Of a DNA stretch of 64,000 nucleotides, positions 1-57,070 are shown in pieces. The DNA lies in assembly GCF_016026235.1 (NCBI RefSeq), contig NZ_CP065613.1; one strand, given 5' to 3'. Position 1 is the first letter of the stretch. The number at the start of each line of letters is the position of its first letter. A program made the position numbers and the translations under genes. The stretch is from Escherichia coli. GTDB taxonomy: Bacteria; Pseudomonadota; Gammaproteobacteria; Enterobacterales; Enterobacteriaceae. Below the pieces are notes generated by a model. That model searched no databases and was not told the origin of the DNA. It saw nothing but the letters and a program-made list of their open reading frames with translations.

Positions 1-77
1 CGCCTGCAACCGACTTGCATAAGATAAACTAATTGTTCATTGTTTATGCTCACTTGTAGGTCGGAGTTAACGTAGGT

Positions 78-893
78 ATGACGGAAGTTAGACGGCGCGG
101 CAGGCCAGGACAGGCGGAGCCTGTGGCACAGAAGGGCGCACAGGCATTAGAGCGGGGAATTGCGATTCTGCAATATCTGGAAAAAAGTGGGGGAAGTTCG
201 TCGGTTAGCGATATTTCTCTCAATCTGGATTTGCCGCTCTCCACGACCTTTCGCTTGCTGAAGGTTTTACAGGCAGCGGATTTTGTCTATCAGGACAGTC
301 AGTTAGGCTGGTGGCATATAGGATTAGGTGTCTTTAACGTCGGTGCAGCGTACATCCATAACCGCGATGTCCTCTCCGTCGCCGGGCCGTTTATGCGCCG
401 CCTGATGTTACTTTCCGGCGAAACGGTCAATGTCGCGATCCGTAACGGCAATGAAGCGGTATTAATTGGTCAGTTAGAGTGTAAATCGATGGTCAGGATG
501 TGTGCTCCACTGGGCAGTCGTCTGCCACTGCATGCTTCCGGTGCGGGCAAAGCGCTGCTTTATCCGCTGGCGGAAGAGGAGTTGATGAGCATCATTCTGC
601 AAACCGGTTTGCAGCAGTTTACGCCAACTACGCTTGTGGATATGCCCACTCTGCTGAAGGACCTGGAACAAGCGCGTGAACTGGGCTATACCGTAGATAA
701 AGAAGAGCATGTTGTAGGTCTGAATTGCATAGCTTCAGCAATTTACGATGATGTAGGTAGCGTTGTTGCCGCTATCTCCATCTCCGGGCCTTCATCAAGA
801 CTGACAGAAGATCGTTTTGTCAGTCAGGGTGAGCTGGTCAGAGACACCGCCCGCGATATCAGCACGGCGTTGGGACTGAAAGCACATCCATAG
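78..893 (+). CDS. allR: IclR-family transcriptional repressor of allantoin/glyoxylate genes
   Basis: 271-aa ORF with IclR-type N-terminal HTH and C-terminal effector domain; position upstream of gcl matches K-12 synteny. Confidence 0.9.
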
Positions 894-10924: not shown

Positions 10925-10933
10925 TGAATTTAC
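10925..10933. repeat. IS1 target-site duplication, right copy (tgaatttac)
   Basis: 9-bp direct repeat identical to 10148-10156. Confidence 0.8.
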
Positions 10934-11005
10934 TACAAAAAAAGCCACGGTATAAACCGTGGCAAAATCCAACATAGCTAAAAATAATCAGGCGAGTGGT
11001 ATGAC

Positions 11006-34375: not shown

Positions 34376-37348
34376 TTACCAGTGCACTCCAATGGTGAGA
34401 AACGCGTTGTTGCGCTCTCCGTTACGTTGATTAATCGCCTTAAAGGTATGTTGATACTCGACGCCGAGACTGACTTTGTGCGGCCAGGCGTCGTAGTGCG
34501 TCTCGCCGGTCCAAATATTCCAGCGGACCCCGACACCGCCAAGCTGCGCGCCCTGAGTGCCTTTATCACGATAGCCGTTGTCCTGAACGTGAGCGTAAGG
34601 CTCAATAGTCTGTCCGTTAGCTACCTTCTGATGCCAGCTGACGCGATAATCTGCCGTCCACGCCTGAATATCTTGGCGGATATATTGCGCCGCATCGAGG
34701 TACAGGTTTTGGGCAAACCAGCCTGAACCGTTCGGGTGCCATTCGTCGCTGTATTTGCCGCCATTAAAGAATGAGACGCTGGCGCGCAGCATGGTATCGG
34801 ATGCGCCATTTTGCCCGTTCAGCGGCAACTGCTGTTCGACGGCGAGGAAAAAGATCTGATCGCGCAGCGGCTTCCAGCGTAGACCGGTGCCGGACATCGG
34901 ATTTTTCACCGGCATCATCACCCCGTTTTCTCCGGTATCGGCAAAGACGCGGCTATAAACTGAAAGCAGGTCGCCTTCCAGCAGCATATTGCGTCCGATG
35001 CGGTATTCGGCTTCCAGTTGCCCGTAGCTACGATAGCTTTTCCCTGGCGCTGCGCCGCCGACATTATTGTTAGCGGTACTCATTGCGCCGGAACGCAAGC
35101 CGATGGAAGAATCGAAACTGAACGTCCAGCGGCGACCGACCTCCTCATGCAAACGGCGGAAATTGAAGCGTTGCTGATTTTGCTCTGGGGTGAGTGGGGT
35201 TATCAGCGCCTGATTATCAATGTCATCAATCACCAGCCGGGCGTAGTGCTGCGTCGCAGGCATGTCATCCAGACGCTGGTTCACATAGGCCAGTTGTCGG
35301 ATCAGTGCCGGATCGTCCGGTAGCCCTTTATGCGCCTGTTCGAGCATTTCCCGCGACTGTGCGATATCACCGCTATCCCACAAGGCGTAACCAAGCGCTG
35401 CCTGGGTGTTGCTATTATTCGGTTCCAGTTCCAGCGCGGCGCGCAAATCACTCACCGCGGCCGGGACATTATGACGTTGGCGATAAATTGTCGCCCGCGC
35501 AACGTAAGCGTTGGCAGAAGGCGCAATATTGATTGAGCGCGTGAGATCGTTCAGTGCGAGTTCCGGCTGACCAGGAATGTAACGTTGCGCATGCAGCCAC
35601 CAGTAGAGCGCATTGCTTCCCAGTCCACGTTGTTCTGCCTGTTGTAGCCAGCGATCGCGAGCCGCACCATTTCCTGCCGCCTGGGCGGTATTGGCAGCAG
35701 CAAGCAGATCCTCATTGCTCATGTCGTGAAGACTGATTTTCTGCCAGGCCGCCAGTGCGGTGGCGTAGTCCTCAACCTGATACGCCTGATAGGCTACCGC
35801 ACGATGTTGCCAGGCGTTCGGTTGTCGTTGTTCGGCCTGAAGCCATGCATACAACGCCACACCGGGTAGCGTGTCCCGATAACACTTTGCCAGACGGTTC
35901 CAGGCGGCGGCATCGTAGGAAGGCGACATATCGCCCAGCAAGCGAACTATTGCCGGGCAATTATCTGCAATACCCGGCAACTGGCTTTGCCACTGACGTT
36001 GCGCCGCCAGCGGCAAGGGTTTTGATAAAATCGCCACCTTCGCTGGAGTTGCCAGGTAAGGATGACTTTCCAGCAGAGACGCCAGTCGCGCCATTAAAGT
36101 CTGGCTGACACGCGCATCGCCCTGGAAAGGATAGCGTTGCAGCAATAAATCGGCAGCTTCGCGTGACTGCTCGTTCTGCATCAGTTGCCAGGTCAGTTGA
36201 TCCAGGCGGGTAAGATTTGCCGGTTCTTGCTGATACAGCAATCGTGCCAGACGCAAAGCTTCAGTCTTGTTACGGGTCGCCACGCTGACAGCATAACGCT
36301 CCTCAAGCATTTCATTGGCGGGGAGGGTGGCGAGCAGTTTTTGCGCTGCGTCGTACTGACCTTCTTTTAACAGCACCGGTAGCGTCGCGCCAACAACATA
36401 CTGGCGGTTATCGGCAAACTGCACCGTATAATTCGCCAATGCCTGAACGGGGTTGGCGCTGTATTTAGATAACAGATAGAGCCAACTTTTCTCTTGTGCG
36501 TCCGTGGTAAACAGCGGCTTATTTTCAATGAGATAATGCTGGAGGCGTGCTTTTTCGCCACGATAAGCCAGCGCGGTCGCGTAAGTAATATATGACTGAG
36601 GATCGGTGAAGATCCCCTGTGATTGCAGCGCCAGGATCCGATCGTCCAGCTGCCCGGCAAGAAGCACGTCAAACCACTGACGGCGTTCTGCCGCGCTTAA
36701 TGTGTTCTGCTGGCGTGCTTCATTGTATAGCGTATCTGCCTGGGACCATTGTTTCAGGTAGATTGCCCGTTGCAGCAGATCGGTTCGCAGCGTTTTTCCT
36801 TCCGGCGATGCAGCAAACGTCGCATCGTTCAGTTGCGCTCTGGCGACAGGTAACTGTGCCAGCCGCAGGGCATTCTGCCCGACTTCACTGCGACAACGCA
36901 GGGTCGGCGCAGCATCGCACGCTTTTTGCTGGGCAAGCAGTTCTTCAACTGTCGTAACGCTTTTCACTTCAACTGGAATAGCCGCCAGACTGCGCTCAAG
37001 TCGGGCATCTCCTGGGTGACGTTTCAGTTGATCCTCAAGCAACTGCCGCGCCCGGTCATCATGACCAAAATGGCGATAGGCTTCCGCAAGGTATAAAGTC
37101 AGCGGAATATTATCCGGCACCTGCTGGTGTATATATTCAAATTCGCGGATGGCGGTTGCTTCGTCGTTATTTTTCTGTGCCTTCAGCGCCTTATCGAGAC
37201 GGGGATAAATAACAAAATGGCGATAATCGCTCAGCCCCAGCTCTTCTGCGCTGGTGCCGATATTGTCTGCGAGTGCGCTGGTACTCAATAAAGACGTCAG
37301 CAGTAAACCAGACCATCCGATGACGCGATTAAGGTTATTCTCCTTCAT
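34376..37348 (-). CDS. nfrA: Outer-membrane TPR/beta-barrel protein NfrA (phage N4 adsorption; PgaA-like exporter)
   Basis: 990-aa ORF with signal peptide, N-terminal TPR repeats and a C-terminal beta-barrel ending in aromatic residue; overlaps nfrB by 14 nt. Confidence 0.9.
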   Translation of the reverse strand: MKENNLNRVIGWSGLLLTSLLSTSALADNIGTSAEELGLSDYRHFVIYPRLDKALKAQKNNDEATAIREFEYIHQQVPDNIPLTLYLAEAYRHFGHDDRARQLLEDQLKRHPGDARLERSLAAIPVEVKSVTTVEELLAQQKACDAAPTLRCRSEVGQNALRLAQLPVARAQLNDATFAASPEGKTLRTDLLQRAIYLKQWSQADTLYNEARQQNTLSAAERRQWFDVLLAGQLDDRILALQSQGIFTDPQSYITYATALAYRGEKARLQHYLIENKPLFTTDAQEKSWLYLLSKYSANPVQALANYTVQFADNRQYVVGATLPVLLKEGQYDAAQKLLATLPANEMLEERYAVSVATRNKTEALRLARLLYQQEPANLTRLDQLTWQLMQNEQSREAADLLLQRYPFQGDARVSQTLMARLASLLESHPYLATPAKVAILSKPLPLAAQRQWQSQLPGIADNCPAIVRLLGDMSPSYDAAAWNRLAKCYRDTLPGVALYAWLQAEQRQPNAWQHRAVAYQAYQVEDYATALAAWQKISLHDMSNEDLLAAANTAQAAGNGAARDRWLQQAEQRGLGSNALYWWLHAQRYIPGQPELALNDLTRSINIAPSANAYVARATIYRQRHNVPAAVSDLRAALELEPNNSNTQAALGYALWDSGDIAQSREMLEQAHKGLPDDPALIRQLAYVNQRLDDMPATQHYARLVIDDIDNQALITPLTPEQNQQRFNFRRLHEEVGRRWTFSFDSSIGLRSGAMSTANNNVGGAAPGKSYRSYGQLEAEYRIGRNMLLEGDLLSVYSRVFADTGENGVMMPVKNPMSGTGLRWKPLRDQIFFLAVEQQLPLNGQNGASDTMLRASVSFFNGGKYSDEWHPNGSGWFAQNLYLDAAQYIRQDIQAWTADYRVSWHQKVANGQTIEPYAHVQDNGYRDKGTQGAQLGGVGVRWNIWTGETHYDAWPHKVSLGVEYQHTFKAINQRNGERNNAFLTIGVHW

Positions 37349-39572
37349 TTTCGGACTCCAGTTGCGTAACCTGTTCTGTGCTTAAACCTGCTTTGAGTAA
37401 TAGTGATTGCATCGAAACTTGTAATTCGCGTTGAATTGTCAGGACGCGATCCAACGTTTCCTGGCTGATAACGCCTTCGGTGACCAAAAACTTGCCGAGC
37501 GGCAGAGAACTGCGTTCATGGCGCAATAACAACACGTTAATTGCTGAACGATTAATATGACCGAGCGTGGTCAGTATTTCGGCGAACAGGAACTGATGCG
37601 GCACATATTGCCGCCAGATTTCACCGGCCTGCTGTTCCGTGAGCCACTGATGCTGAACCGCATTGTACAACATTGCCCGCGGATCGTGACCGCGTCGGCG
37701 TGCATACCAGTGACGTAACCCCGTGACAATTTGTCCCAGCAGAACAATGACGTAACGCACTTTGCGTCCGACTTTACGCGTCAGGGCCGCCAGCGAAACT
37801 GGGTCAATACCATCTTCACTGCCGACAATTAACTCATCATTTTCCAGACGCAGCGGCAGTACCGCATAATGCAGCGCCACGGAGGCCGGCATTTCGGCAA
37901 TCAGCGAGGAAGGGATCTGCCAGGCATCGATGGATTCCCACGCCACGCCGTTTTGCTCTGCCAGCGCCTGTGCCAGTTGCTCGGCGCTAATCAGCCCCTG
38001 CATCAGCATTGAACCGCCCAGGCGTAGACCTTCGACGCGATTACGCAGTGCTGTATCGAGTTGTTCTTCAGTGATGACCTGATTTTCCAGCAGAATTTGA
38101 CCTAACGGGCGCAACGAGCGGGTATCGCCAGTGACGCTGGGGAAGTCATGCGTTGTTTTATCCCACGCCACGCGACGTGGATCGCCGTGTTGAAGTACCT
38201 GTTTTAACGCGCGCCAGTTGGCCATGAAGTTAATCAGGTTGCCCCAGAAAAGACGCAGGACGGAAAGCAGCCCCTGCGTCAGGCCGTAGTAGCCAGTAAC
38301 GAAAATCACCCGCTGCACGATGCGGTTAACCATCAAACCAAAGTTTAGCCACAGCAGGGTCATTAACCATGCGCTGCCGCTGAAAATAGAAAGGAAATGC
38401 CAGGCATCGGGCCACAAACTTTCATACGCCAGCAACAGCAAAAGCTGGATCATCACCAGCATCGCGAGGAAGCTGACAAAGTTACTGATTGCCCCTTTGC
38501 GGTCGCGCCAGAGAAAGTAGTTCAGCGTCAGGCTGGAGGTCCATTTATGGGTTTTAAAGCCCTGGAAAACAATGCCGATGATCCAGCGGGATTTTTGTCG
38601 AACCGCAGTCGAAAAGGTATCGGGGAAATATTCGCGCACGCAGATCATGTTTGACGTCCGTGCGTGCTGTAAAAATTTACGCTGCTCGCGTTCTTTGGCT
38701 TCGTCCACCACCGGAAAACGGACAAAAATTTCCGTCATACCTTTTTCTTTCAGGCGGAAGCCAATGTCGTAATCTTCAGTAAGACTCTGCACGTCGAAAG
38801 CAATACCGTCACCGTCAGCTAACAGTGCGGTCACGGCGCGGCGGCTGAAACAGGTGCCGACGCCTGCGCTGGGCACTTGTCCGGCGAGGGCTTCACGCAC
38901 CGGAACATCTTTGCCATGCAGCTCTGAAAACTCATCAATGTAAGTCATGCTAGTGAAGTGCGTCCATTCGCGTTCAAACGGATACACCGGGATCTGAATC
39001 AGATCTTTACGCTCGACCAGATAGTTGAACAGACGCAATTCCATCGGTGAAATCACATCTTCGGCGTCATGCAGAATAAAACCAGCAAAAGCGAAATTGG
39101 CGCTACGCTCAAACTGGGTGATGGCGTCCAGCACGTTGTTCAGACAGTCGGCTTTGCTGGTGGGGCCAGGACGCGCGCAGACTACCTTATGCACATTCGG
39201 GAAGCGAGCGCACACTTCGTCAACATCACGCTGAGTGTCCGGGTCGTTGGGGTAGGTGCCAACAAAGATATGATAGTTTTCGTAGTCGAGCGTGGTCGCC
39301 GCCAGCTCGGCCATATTGCCGATGACGCCCGTTTCATTCCACGCCGGAACCATAATCGCTAACGGTTTTTCATCTGGTTTATACAGTTCGCGGTAACTCA
39401 TTCGCGGGTAGCGGCGATAAACACTCAACTTGCGTTTAATGCGGCGTACCCAGTAGACGACATCAATAAAAAAATCGTCCAGCCCGCTGATGAACATGAT
39501 GACCGCTAACGTTATCGCGATTACTTTTAAGCCATAGAGCCAGGTAGCAAAAACATCAAGAAGCCAGTCCAC
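37335..39572 (-). CDS. nfrB: Inner-membrane family-2 glycosyltransferase with C-terminal c-di-GMP-binding MshEN domain
   Basis: 745-aa ORF with GT2 core and two C-terminal RLGxx…G(I/L)…Q motifs. Confidence 0.9.
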   Translation of the reverse strand: MDWLLDVFATWLYGLKVIAITLAVIMFISGLDDFFIDVVYWVRRIKRKLSVYRRYPRMSYRELYKPDEKPLAIMVPAWNETGVIGNMAELAATTLDYENYHIFVGTYPNDPDTQRDVDEVCARFPNVHKVVCARPGPTSKADCLNNVLDAITQFERSANFAFAGFILHDAEDVISPMELRLFNYLVERKDLIQIPVYPFEREWTHFTSMTYIDEFSELHGKDVPVREALAGQVPSAGVGTCFSRRAVTALLADGDGIAFDVQSLTEDYDIGFRLKEKGMTEIFVRFPVVDEAKEREQRKFLQHARTSNMICVREYFPDTFSTAVRQKSRWIIGIVFQGFKTHKWTSSLTLNYFLWRDRKGAISNFVSFLAMLVMIQLLLLLAYESLWPDAWHFLSIFSGSAWLMTLLWLNFGLMVNRIVQRVIFVTGYYGLTQGLLSVLRLFWGNLINFMANWRALKQVLQHGDPRRVAWDKTTHDFPSVTGDTRSLRPLGQILLENQVITEEQLDTALRNRVEGLRLGGSMLMQGLISAEQLAQALAEQNGVAWESIDAWQIPSSLIAEMPASVALHYAVLPLRLENDELIVGSEDGIDPVSLAALTRKVGRKVRYVIVLLGQIVTGLRHWYARRRGHDPRAMLYNAVQHQWLTEQQAGEIWRQYVPHQFLFAEILTTLGHINRSAINVLLLRHERSSLPLGKFLVTEGVISQETLDRVLTIQRELQVSMQSLLLKAGLSTEQVTQLESENEGE

Positions 39573-53798: not shown

Positions 53799-54126
53799 TT
53801 ATGTTGGCGTTTTCTATTCAGTATAGAAGTCGGAGCGGCTGGGCGAGATGCGGAAGTTCTGGAATGTTTCTTTTTTTGATGATGGTGACTGAAGCAAATT
53901 GGCTACATTTTGCAATGTGACCAGTTGCGTCATAGTTGGCTGGCGGCGAAGAATTTTGACGATTGCGGCATGCAGAAAAAAACGGGTTCAGCTTCAGTTG
54001 ATTAAATGAGGAGTGAGAAGTCCGAAACAGGATTCACTGTATAAATAAACAGCCATTTTGTTGAGGAAGGGTAAGATAACGGCGGGTGCCTGAAGCTTTC
54101 CGGTTTCAGGTTTACTCTGAGGTCTG

Positions 54127-54185
54127 GAAAGATGAAGCCCCAGGAGATATTTCTATCAACCCTGGGGCTGCCACTCCAAACCAGA
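54127..54185 (-). ncRNA. sokE: Putative Sok-type antisense RNA, hok copy 1
   Basis: Placed by analogy with known hok/sok loci (antisense to the mok leader 45-100 nt upstream of hok); exact ends were not determined. Confidence 0.35.
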
Positions 54186-54229
54186 CAATTTGGATGGTAG
54201 TTCCTTCTTCGCATGGAGGCAATATAAAC

Positions 54230-54382
54230 ATGCTGACGAAATATGCCCTTGTGGCAGTCATAGTGCTGTGTTTGACGGTACTGGGATTTACGCTTCTGGT
54301 CGGAGACTCGCTGTGTGAGTTTACGGTGAAGGAACGTAATATTGAGTTCAGGGCTGTTCTCGCTTACGAACCGAAGAAGTAG
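54230..54382 (+). CDS. hokE: Hok-family type I toxin (50 aa), copy 1
   Basis: [50 protein letters not shown]; overlapped in frame by a mok-like ORF starting at GTG 54086. Confidence 0.88.
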
Positions 54383-54404
54383 CCGTTGTGCGGGGAGTAA
54401 TCCC

Positions 54405-55698
54405 CTGAGGGATCCCCAGAAAATTTAGTAAACCATTATCATATTGGTATACCGTTGCTGTAGAACTTTCAGCCCTGCGTCAAGTGACAGTGTGTTTAGT
54501 ATGAGTGGAGAATGTCGAATCACATTCTCCGCCAGTTTTAATAACGAGATGACTCGCCTGTGCTTCACTGTATTTGCCTGATATTTATGATGTATCCCTT
54601 TGTTTTCCAGGCTGAAACCGCTTAACCACATAATGATACTGGCTAATGTTGCGATCAGACTCAATACCGTGACCCGCCCGGATGAATGACTGGCACCAAA
54701 CCGTAGTCCAAATCCCCAGCGAGGATTTTTTTCATCCCTGAAATTTTGCTCAATTTGCATTCTACGGCTGTATAATTTCATTACCTGTTTTGGCGAGAAC
54801 TCAGTACTGTTTGTGAAAATAAACCATGGTGATTTCCCGGCAGTACGAGCTTTAGCCGTCACCGATGGTCTGGTTGCTCTTTCCTTCGAGCGTTTAAATC
54901 TACGACCTTTAGGCTTACTTTTATAAAGATAAAAATGCCCTTCATGTTGTGCATTTTTATCTCGACCCAGCAGGCCTTCACCTAAATAAATTGCTGTCGT
55001 TGATGCTTTTGTGCCTGAGTCCGACACCTTTTCCCAGCCATTACCAACATTGTAATAATGATTGCCCAGTACCCGGCAAATATAGGTCCAGCCACGGGAG
55101 CGGAGCTGTTGGAACCATCGCCCCTGAAAACCGGCATCTGTAATAACAATGACATCAGTCCCGGGGGAAAAGCACTCAGCAAGCGATTCCAGAAAACGCT
55201 CATGTACATCTGCATTCGCTGTCTGTGATGATGGAACGACACAACTCATCAACGGTAAAGAACGCCCGTCACATGCCAGGCTTGCCCGCAAAAGCTGAAA
55301 ACGAGAGGCATGATAAGCACTCCAGTCAATGAGTATCACAACACGAGACATTCCCCGCGTAATCTTTTGGGTAATTCGCTGAAAAATGGTGGAAACCTCA
55401 TTTTGCAAATGTCGATTCCCCAACAGTCGATCCACCCGCTTTATTTTGTTTTTAACTGATGCCGTACCGGTTAAATGACGCCCGATACTGGTAAGTGTGA
55501 GGGAAGCGCCATTTATTACAGCATTAGTTGCGTCAATCAGTGATTTTTGACGGTAAAGATGCAAAGGGGCCAGTATATTGTTAAGGAAATTTTGGCATAA
55601 TGAACGTGCAGGCATAGTGGTGATCTCCTTGAAATTGTTAGCACAATCAATTAGATCACATCTCACTATGCCTGTCTTGTTTTCTGGGGATTCCTCAG
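54405..55698 (-). mobile_element. IS4-family insertion sequence, about 1.3 kb (IS186-like by position and target, IS10-like by ends and transposase)
   Basis: Imperfect terminal inverted repeats ctgagggatccccagaaaa / ctgaggaatccccagaaaa; flanked by a roughly 10-bp direct repeat (gagtaatccc); inserted in a GGGG-N-CCCC hairpin 22 bp after the hok stop; boundaries uncertain by 1-2 nt. Confidence 0.8.
54425..55615 (-). CDS. DDE transposase, IS4 family
   Basis: 396 aa from MPARSLCQNFLNN; DDE residues (VILIDWS, VITDAGF) and the YSRRMQIEQNFRDEK signature; the 568-aa track ORF is a read-through from flanking DNA. Confidence 0.85.
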   Translation of the reverse strand: MPARSLCQNFLNNILAPLHLYRQKSLIDATNAVINGASLTLTSIGRHLTGTASVKNKIKRVDRLLGNRHLQNEVSTIFQRITQKITRGMSRVVILIDWSAYHASRFQLLRASLACDGRSLPLMSCVVPSSQTANADVHERFLESLAECFSPGTDVIVITDAGFQGRWFQQLRSRGWTYICRVLGNHYYNVGNGWEKVSDSGTKASTTAIYLGEGLLGRDKNAQHEGHFYLYKSKPKGRRFKRSKERATRPSVTAKARTAGKSPWFIFTNSTEFSPKQVMKLYSRRMQIEQNFRDEKNPRWGFGLRFGASHSSGRVTVLSLIATLASIIMWLSGFSLENKGIHHKYQANTVKHRRVISLLKLAENVIRHSPLILNTLSLDAGLKVLQQRYTNMIMVY

Positions 55699-55932
55699 GA
55701 GTAATCCCCGCATATCCGGTTGTCAGGTCAGGATGGTAAGGCACCTGCTTTACACTTTCGCCCGCGGTCAGTGATGGCTGCGGGCGATTTCGTTTTAAGA
55801 GCAATGATGAGTTTTGCCGACAGAAGTCCGAAACAGGACTCACTGTATAAATAAACAGCCATTTTGCTAAGGAAGGGTAAGATAACGGCGGGTGCCTGAA
55901 GCTTTCCGGTTTCAGGTTAACTCTGAGGTCTG

Positions 55933-55992
55933 GAAAGATGAAGCCCCAGGAGATATTTCTATCAATCCTGGGGCTGCCACTCCGAGCCTCAA
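55933..55992 (-). ncRNA. Putative Sok-type antisense RNA, hok copy 2
   Basis: Homologous position to copy 1; exact ends were not determined. Confidence 0.3.
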
Positions 55993-56036
55993 CAACTCGG
56001 ATGGTAGTCCCTTCTTCGCATGGAGGCAATATAAAC

Positions 56037-56189
56037 ATGCTGACGAAATATGCCCTTGTGGCAGTCATAGTGCTGTGTTTGACGGTGCTGGGATTTACGC
56101 TTCTGGTCGGAGAGTCGCTGTGTGAGTTCACCGTAAAGGAACGTAATATTGAGTTTAAGGCTGTTCTCGCTTACGAACCGAAGAAGTAG
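56037..56189 (+). CDS. Hok-family type I toxin (50 aa), copy 2
   Basis: [50 protein letters not shown]; intact 3' hairpin gcggggagcaatccccgc downstream. Confidence 0.85.
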
Positions 56190-56944: not shown

Positions 56945-57070
56945 GAGACTGATGACAAACGCAAAACTGCCTGATGCGCTACGCTTATCAGGCCTACATG
57001 GTCCTGCAATATATTGAATTGGCAAGATTTTTGTAGGCCGGATAAGGCGTTCACGCCGCATCCGGCATGA
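56945..57070. repeat. REP/BIME palindromic repeats
   Basis: ctgatgcgctacgcttatcaggcctaca and gtaggccggataaggcgttcacgccgcatccggca units between entD and fepA. Confidence 0.75.

Follow-up and report, generated by a model that had tools for sequence, protein, structure and literature searches.

The c-di-GMP site of the MshEN domain consists of two adjacent 24-residue motifs that are connected by a joint of about five residues and fold into one four-helix bundle, with each motif holding half of the c-di-GMP molecule (PMC5013675). The supplementary alignment of Wang et al. (2016) includes residues 481–558 of NFRB_ECOLI, and MshEN-based control of NfrB by c-di-GMP is already known, having been predicted in 2016 and shown in 2021 in two mBio papers. 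A construct of NfrB residues 414–745, which spans both of the modules described below and for which the affinity was reported without a stoichiometry, binds c-di-GMP specifically with a Kd of 1.0 ± 0.35 µM (DRaCALA, MST; PMC8669469, PMC8669472), and the ligand is supplied to NfrB locally by DgcJ (2021 papers). Plating of phage N4 is lowered by the substitutions L490A, L490A/L537A and G491L (PMC8669469), and killing by N4 is abolished by G491L and partly by G519S (PMC8669472); phenotypes have been reported in this way for two mutants of the second motif, G519S and L537A (PMC8669469, PMC8669472). All of the published NfrB mutations (L490, G491, L505, L509, L518, G519, L537) fall within residues 489–512 and 517–540.

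The other system that bears on the present locus is PilF of Thermus thermophilus, with three GSPII (MshEN) domains in a row; c-di-GMP is bound by B and C but not by A (PMC11731258, PMC12002112). GSPII-B binds the ligand without arginines (PilF papers), and an isolated MshEN N-subdomain binds it without the C-subdomain (PMC12002112). In the non-binding GSPII-A domain, motif positions 1, 3 and 24 are occupied by Ser, Ala and His, respectively; binding was regained only when these changes were reverted and structural hindrances were removed, with the exchange of Ala for Gly alone accounting for a difference of about 10-fold (PMC12002112).

The nfrB locus and its canonical MshEN domain

The stretch of Escherichia coli DNA analyzed here, referred to as the window, is 64 kb long (64,000 nucleotides). 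On its minus strand, a 745-codon open reading frame with a GTG start is nfrB, encoding E. coli NfrB, the c-di-GMP-activated glycosyltransferase required for phage N4 infection. The protein passes the NCBIfam equivalog model NF008411 (1330.1 bits against a cutoff of 1170), with residues 7–728 matching positions 1–722 of the 723 in the profile, and a megablast search of 5426 complete E. coli genomes detected it in 5092 of them, the best nucleotide identity being 99.6%. The order nfrB–nfrA–ybcH is intact, with all three genes on the minus strand and both NfrA and YbcH passing their equivalog models, and nfrB overlaps nfrA by 14 nt, in agreement with the overlap described in PMC8669469. Since the RefSeq product name of the gene now reads 'cyclic di-3',5'-guanylate-activated glycosyltransferase NfrB', the attribution of an MshEN-type c-di-GMP response to this protein adds, by itself, nothing new.

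An earlier note made from the sequence of the window had placed two MshEN-type motifs in the C-terminal part of NfrB, both of the RLG type, and had taken them as support for second-messenger control of the glycosyltransferase. The minus-strand translation of positions 37431–38024 begins with RLGGSMLMQGLISAEQLAQALAEQ, which corresponds to NfrB residues 517–540, and ends with LPLGKFLVTEGVISQETLDRVLTIQ, residues 690–714. We searched for these motifs with the relaxed form of the 24-residue pattern, which had served Wang et al. (2016) for counting motifs in genomes, [RKPN]hGxxhhxx[GAS]hhxxxxhxxxhxx[QNKRYWST]. In the six-frame translation of the whole window, this pattern matches only residues 517–540 and 691–714, and at least one match was obtained in just 32 of 20,000 shuffles of NfrB; given this specificity, the two motifs are confirmed as non-chance features, present at the residues originally proposed. 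The strict expression RLGxx[LVI][LVI]xxG[LVI][LVI]xxxxLxxxLxxQ has no match in NfrB because M522 occupies position 6, the single position at which 517–540 deviates from the strict published pattern, and this motif is recovered once Met is allowed. The distal motif proper begins at P691, L690 being part of the spacer, so that its first residue is Pro in place of the consensus Arg. These points are minor corrections to an otherwise confirmed observation. The proposed second-messenger control itself agrees with experiment, as regulation of the NfrB glycosyltransferase by c-di-GMP through MshEN-type motifs has been demonstrated (PMC8669469, PMC8669472).

The assignment of partners is different from that implied by the earlier note, in which 517–540 and 691–714 were treated as a pair and two further units, 489–512 and a degenerate one at 662–685, were absent. 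It is with these two units that the reported motifs form tandem pairs. Motif I is placed at 489–512 because NF053729, a 53-residue NCBIfam model of a c-di-GMP motif, aligns end to end with residues 489–540, which by themselves score 55.2 bits against a cutoff of 38; the spacer between motifs I and II is VEGL, four residues. Motif II (517–540) fits the relaxed pattern, with G519 conserved in 28 of 28 and Q540 in 31 of 31 homologues. Motif I fits it at every position save position 10, where 24 of 28 homologues have Gly and the E. coli protein has Gln (Q498). It also lacks Arg at position 1 (P489), which is never basic among the 32 homologues examined, as well as Gln at position 24 (R512). Comparison with MshEN profiles, which the earlier note had suggested, gave a significant Pfam hit (PF05157, 49.8 bits against a gathering score of 23.1), but this hit covers only residues 542–628 and neither motif, and so can speak neither for nor against them; the motifs are covered by NF053729. 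In a phmmer search against PDB sequences, NfrB 488–625 was aligned to PilF, PilB and MshE over both motifs and the subdomain. Against c-di-GMP-bound MshE (5htl), an AF2 model of residues 480–745 (pLDDT 93.6, pTM 0.88) reaches a target-normalised TM-score of 0.75, and against PilF GSPII-B (8pdk/8pfa) it reaches scores of 0.70–0.72, over about 140 columns in each case. The functional c-di-GMP pair is therefore 489–512 and 517–540, which together with 542–628 make up a complete MshEN domain (Table 1).

We considered whether 517–540 and 691–714 could instead jointly form one c-di-GMP site, each binding one guanine. Either motif singly fits the published pattern, and the AF2 model of 480–745 is one compact body in which distant segments could, in principle, approach each other. 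The two motifs are, however, 150 residues apart and lie in different bundles, each next to an in-register partner of its own, whereas the defined MshEN site requires adjacent motifs within a single bundle. Furthermore, the strongest mutant phenotypes come from motif I (G491L, L490A), and the structural matches to MshE span 488–625 as a single unit. A joint site is thus very improbable.

Table 1. Features of nfrB and its operon in the window (residue numbers refer to NfrB)
Feature	Residues or length	Sequence	Window coordinates	Strand	Evidence
nfrB			37335..39572	-	NF008411 1330 bits; megablast
GT2 glycosyltransferase domain	70–382		38427..39365	-	Pfam Glyco_trans_2_3 E 2e-40, Glyco_tranf_2_3 E 3.5e-35
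Motif I	489–512	PLGQILLENQVITEEQLDTALRNR	38037..38108	-	NF053729 positions 1–53 on 489–540; Wang 2016 supplement
Motif II	517–540	RLGGSMLMQGLISAEQLAQALAEQ	37953..38024	-	relaxed pattern; conservation; mutant phenotypes
MshEN C-terminal alpha/beta subdomain	542–628		37689..37949	-	Pfam PF05157; PDB-sequence matches; AF2 model
Helical hairpin, MshEN-to-tail link	631–659		37596..37682	-	AF2 helices 631–640, 646–659
Motif I', degenerate	662–685	LFAEILTTLGHINRSAINVLLLRH	37518..37589	-	hhalign; NF053729; conservation
Motif II'	691–714	PLGKFLVTEGVISQETLDRVLTIQ	37431..37502	-	relaxed pattern; hhalign register
Terminal helical hairpin, weakly motif-like, poorly conserved	721–743		37344..37412	-	AF2 helices 721–727, 732–743
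nfrA, outer-membrane TPR/beta-barrel protein	990 aa		34376..37348	-	NF007302 1889 bits
ybcH, DUF4434, third operon gene	296 aa		33485..34375	-	NF007404 520 bits

The tail module, residues 662–714

A profile–profile search with hhalign, in which the tail and the canonical module were each represented by an NfrB-family profile, yielded a single strong alignment of 662–715 to 489–541 (97.1% probability, E-value 4.9e-11), with 53 columns in register. In this alignment, L662-F663-A664 correspond to P489-L490-G491, P691-L692-G693 to R517-L518-G519, and Q714 to Q540, which places 691–714 as motif II' in a second module, with 662–685 as its motif I'; the spacer between the two is five residues. Residues 652–745 alone score 47.9 bits with NF053729, above its cutoff of 38, with profile positions 4–53 aligned to 665–714. 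Motif II' passes the relaxed pattern. Motif I' fails it at positions 1 (L662) and 3 (A664); in the E. coli protein its position 2 is Phe and its position 24 is His (H685). The AF2 models show two tail hairpins, each made of a short helix, a loop and a long helix (663–669/675–685 and 692–698/704–717), which together adopt the four-helix-bundle fold. The nearest folds are those of ligand-bound MshE and PilF, with PilF GSPII-B as the best Foldseek match. When the tail was used as a phmmer query against 1.8 billion representative sequences, NfrB orthologues were retrieved first, followed by proteins containing 4–7 NF053729 modules. No alpha/beta C-subdomain follows the tail module, there being just the hairpin 721–743 and then the stop codon, with no second PF05157 hit. 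Within NfrB, the segment 662–714 is thus a second copy of the MshEN N-subdomain, duplicated internally, with hairpins on both sides and without the alpha/beta subdomain.

Other assignments of these helices were rejected. Pairing of 691–714 with the terminal hairpin (692–734; 27 bits with our own HMM, 30 bits with NF053729) was discarded in favour of 662–714 on the strength of the single in-register hhalign alignment and because the columns of the terminal hairpin (719–742) are variable among homologues. Our own 53-residue HMM was used for alignment register only, since it is partly circular: the proteins from which it was made had themselves been found with the tail as query. The hairpin 631–659 has no detectable homology to the motifs, the alternative hhalign alignment having a probability of 0.8%.

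Conservation was assessed in a set of 32 NfrB homologues reaching down to about 34–48% identity. In motif II', Q714 is invariant (32/32) and G693 and L696 are each found in 31 homologues; V697 and L707 are present in 29 and G700 in 23, and L692 is Leu in 26 and Phe in five. Motif I' has Leu or Phe at position 2 and either Gly (19 homologues) or Ala (12) at position 3, with G671 conserved in 27 of 32 and L682 in all; its position 24 is His in 16, Gln in seven and Tyr in five. Neither tail motif has a basic residue at position 1 in any homologue. The conservation of motif positions including G693 and Q714 indicates that selection acts on the motif-defining positions of the tail module. As the counterparts of these two residues touch the ligand in MshE (PMC5013675), their near-invariance argues that a ligand-related role may have been retained.

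These data also bear on the proposal that the likeness of 691–714 to the motif arose by chance in a helical tail of unrelated origin. Amphipathic hairpins rich in Leu and Gly are common, and the weak Pfam matches to FumaraseC_C and DUF4388 over the motif-like hairpins, which we considered uninformative, show that such a pattern is low in information. Yet the relaxed pattern is rare in shuffled NfrB, the profile–profile similarity extends over 53 columns, the NCBIfam score exceeds a curated cutoff, and homologues with about 45% overall identity still share the motif positions, so that a chance origin is already refuted.

Sellner et al. (2021) label the C-terminal region of NfrB a 'domain with unknown function', and in the literature that we searched we found neither a solved NfrB structure nor a mention of a second module. 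The duplicate at 662–714 is the sole new element of this analysis and a modest refinement of the known picture, with a useful by-product: the extreme C-terminus of NfrB, formerly of 'unknown function', is a conserved copy of a c-di-GMP-binding four-helix module.

Possible roles of the tail in c-di-GMP signaling

The best explanation of the data, to which we assign a probability of roughly 85%, is that the region is the cytoplasmic C-terminal regulatory part of NfrB, consisting of a canonical MshEN receptor and a conserved tail duplicate. Binding of c-di-GMP to the canonical bundle would activate the GT2 domain allosterically, and the activated domain would then produce the ManNAc-containing glycan that serves as the N4 receptor and is presumably exported by NfrA. 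In E. coli, the tail would most likely serve as a pseudo-receptor with a structural or regulatory role; at most, it would be a weak second site. A pseudo-receptor is favoured because A664, H685 and the lack of a basic residue at position 1 of either motif are deviations of the kind that abolish or weaken binding in PilF GSPII-A. The tail may perhaps act as a latch or docking surface.

Alternatively, residues 662–714 could form a second c-di-GMP site, in which case NfrB would take up two ligands, with cooperativity or a sharper threshold for the local DgcJ signal. Several observations are compatible with such a putative site. The tail scores above the curated NCBIfam cutoff for the c-di-GMP motif domain, its fold is closest to those of ligand-bound proteins, and ligand-contact positions are kept (G693, Q714, L692, L707, L711); in 19 of the 32 homologues, Gly occupies position 3 of motif I'. 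An isolated MshEN N-subdomain suffices for binding, and PilF GSPII-B can do without Arg. On the other hand, A664 stands at a Gly position, and the corresponding change from Gly to Ala costs about 10-fold in PilF; H685 replaces Gln, and a His at this position had to be reverted to regain binding by PilF GSPII-A; and neither tail motif has a basic position 1, where Ser abolished binding in a PilF construct. GSPII-A also shows that the presence of the motif alone is no predictor of binding. Furthermore, G491L in the canonical site by itself abolishes N4 infection, and the tail therefore cannot substitute for that site. Taken together, these considerations make a second site rather unlikely. Sequence deviations are, however, a weak predictor of binding, since the canonical motif I lacks both Arg 1 and Gln 24 and the domain nevertheless binds at 1 µM.

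As a tentative extension of the canonical-receptor model, and one that we consider doubtful, the tail might still bind c-di-GMP or close in a c-di-GMP-dependent manner onto the canonical site or the glycosyltransferase domain, which would make NfrB a two-site, cooperative receptor with a threshold-like response to DgcJ, the cyclase co-localised with it. If it were true that the tail binds ligand or latches, the dose–response view of this model 'local signalling' system would change.

Comparison with described systems

NfrB of E. coli K-12 (b0569), the GT2 exopolysaccharide synthase of the NfrBA-YbcH/DgcJ system (Junkermeier & Hengge 2021; Sellner et al. 2021), is the product of the same gene, and the equivalog assignment, the nfrB–nfrA–ybcH operon and the overlap of the first two genes are all shared. 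All four motif units in the window are identical to those of K-12-like database sequences. The allele differs from every E. coli-like representative retrieved by R612L, N731S and A736T, each of which lies outside the motifs.

Compared with MshEN of Vibrio cholerae (PDB 5HTL; Wang et al. 2016), the NfrB domain is located C-terminal to a membrane GT2 enzyme, whereas that of MshE is N-terminal to a secretion ATPase. The canonical spacer is one of four residues in NfrB and of five in MshE, and motif I of NfrB is distinct from that of MshE in that it begins with Pro (position 1), carries Gln at position 10 and ends with Arg (position 24). In the tail copy of NfrB, unlike in MshE, both the C-subdomain and Arg are missing.

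For the tail, two groups of repeat-containing proteins are relevant. The multi-copy 'c-di-GMP_motif' proteins (NF053729; PATAN/DUF4388-associated repeats), which make up the remote matches of the tail, contain 4–7 consecutive 53-residue modules without C-subdomains, which resemble the run of hairpins in the NfrB tail; they differ from NfrB in that they have no glycosyltransferase domain and in that their modules mostly retain the RLG or KLG start. PilF provides a precedent for repeated MshEN-type modules with unequal ligand competence within one protein, and its GSPII-A domain deviates from the consensus in the ways seen in motif I' of NfrB: residue 24 is His, residue 3 is Ala and residue 1 is not basic. 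The PilF repeats, however, are complete domains with C-subdomains, whereas the tail of NfrB consists of the four-helix module alone, set between additional hairpins.

Residue variants in NfrB

Codon 612 of nfrB (window 37737-37739), which falls within the MshEN alpha/beta subdomain, encodes Leu in the present sequence (VIVLLGQ). Each of the 34 E. coli-like representatives from the databases carries Arg here instead (VIVLRGQ), and the residue is Lys or Arg in most of the distant homologues. Searching 5,426 complete E. coli genomes with a 41-nt sequence that has this codon at its centre gave no hit, so Leu612 appears to be private to the present sequence. The terminal hairpin also differs: window 37365-37382, covering residues 731 and 736, encodes GLSTEQVTQLE, compared with GLNTEQVAQLE in 22 of the 22 E. 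coli-like sequences retrieved, and the allele therefore carries N731S and A736T. Both columns are weakly conserved.

Surroundings of the nfrB operon and RNA matches

The tRNA-Arg(UCU) gene, argU, which is the insertion site of the DLP12 prophage in K-12, directly adjoins a gene for an AraC-family regulator, and ybcH-nfrA-nfrB come next; a prophage-sized insert is absent from this locus of the window. Elsewhere, two enterobacterial sRNAs were matched. Two matches to sok, the antitoxin RNA of hok/sok, lie beside or overlap with an ORF that encodes a DDE transposase domain; the arrangement at 54084-56131 suggests that an IS element has inserted in, or duplicated, a hok/sok locus.

Features located in the window
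Feature	Position	Strand	Rfam match
STnc480	10933-10999	+	87 bits, above gathering score
tRNA-Arg(UCU) gene	32419-32495	+	
AraC-family regulator gene	32541-33302	-	
sok, first match	54084-54238		80 bits
ORF with DDE transposase domain	54425-56131	-	
sok, second match	55890-56045		86 bits
ES036/CssrF	56990-57031	-	40.5 bits, above gathering score

Fusion proteins and comparison with MshE

Several public proteins retrieved with the NfrB tail (P0083-P0087) have an N-terminal part that is Rhs-like or VgrG, fused to the C-terminal part of NfrB; in P0084, for instance, a VgrG/Phage_GPD domain comes first and NfrB continues from about residue 101. Such fusions may be either genuine nfrB rearrangements or chimeras of assembly or gene calling.

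The spacer between motifs I and II of the canonical NfrB module comprises four residues, VEGL (residues 513-516, window 38025-38036), whereas five are described for MshE of Vibrio cholerae; the tail module, with ERSSL, has the canonical five, as in MshE.
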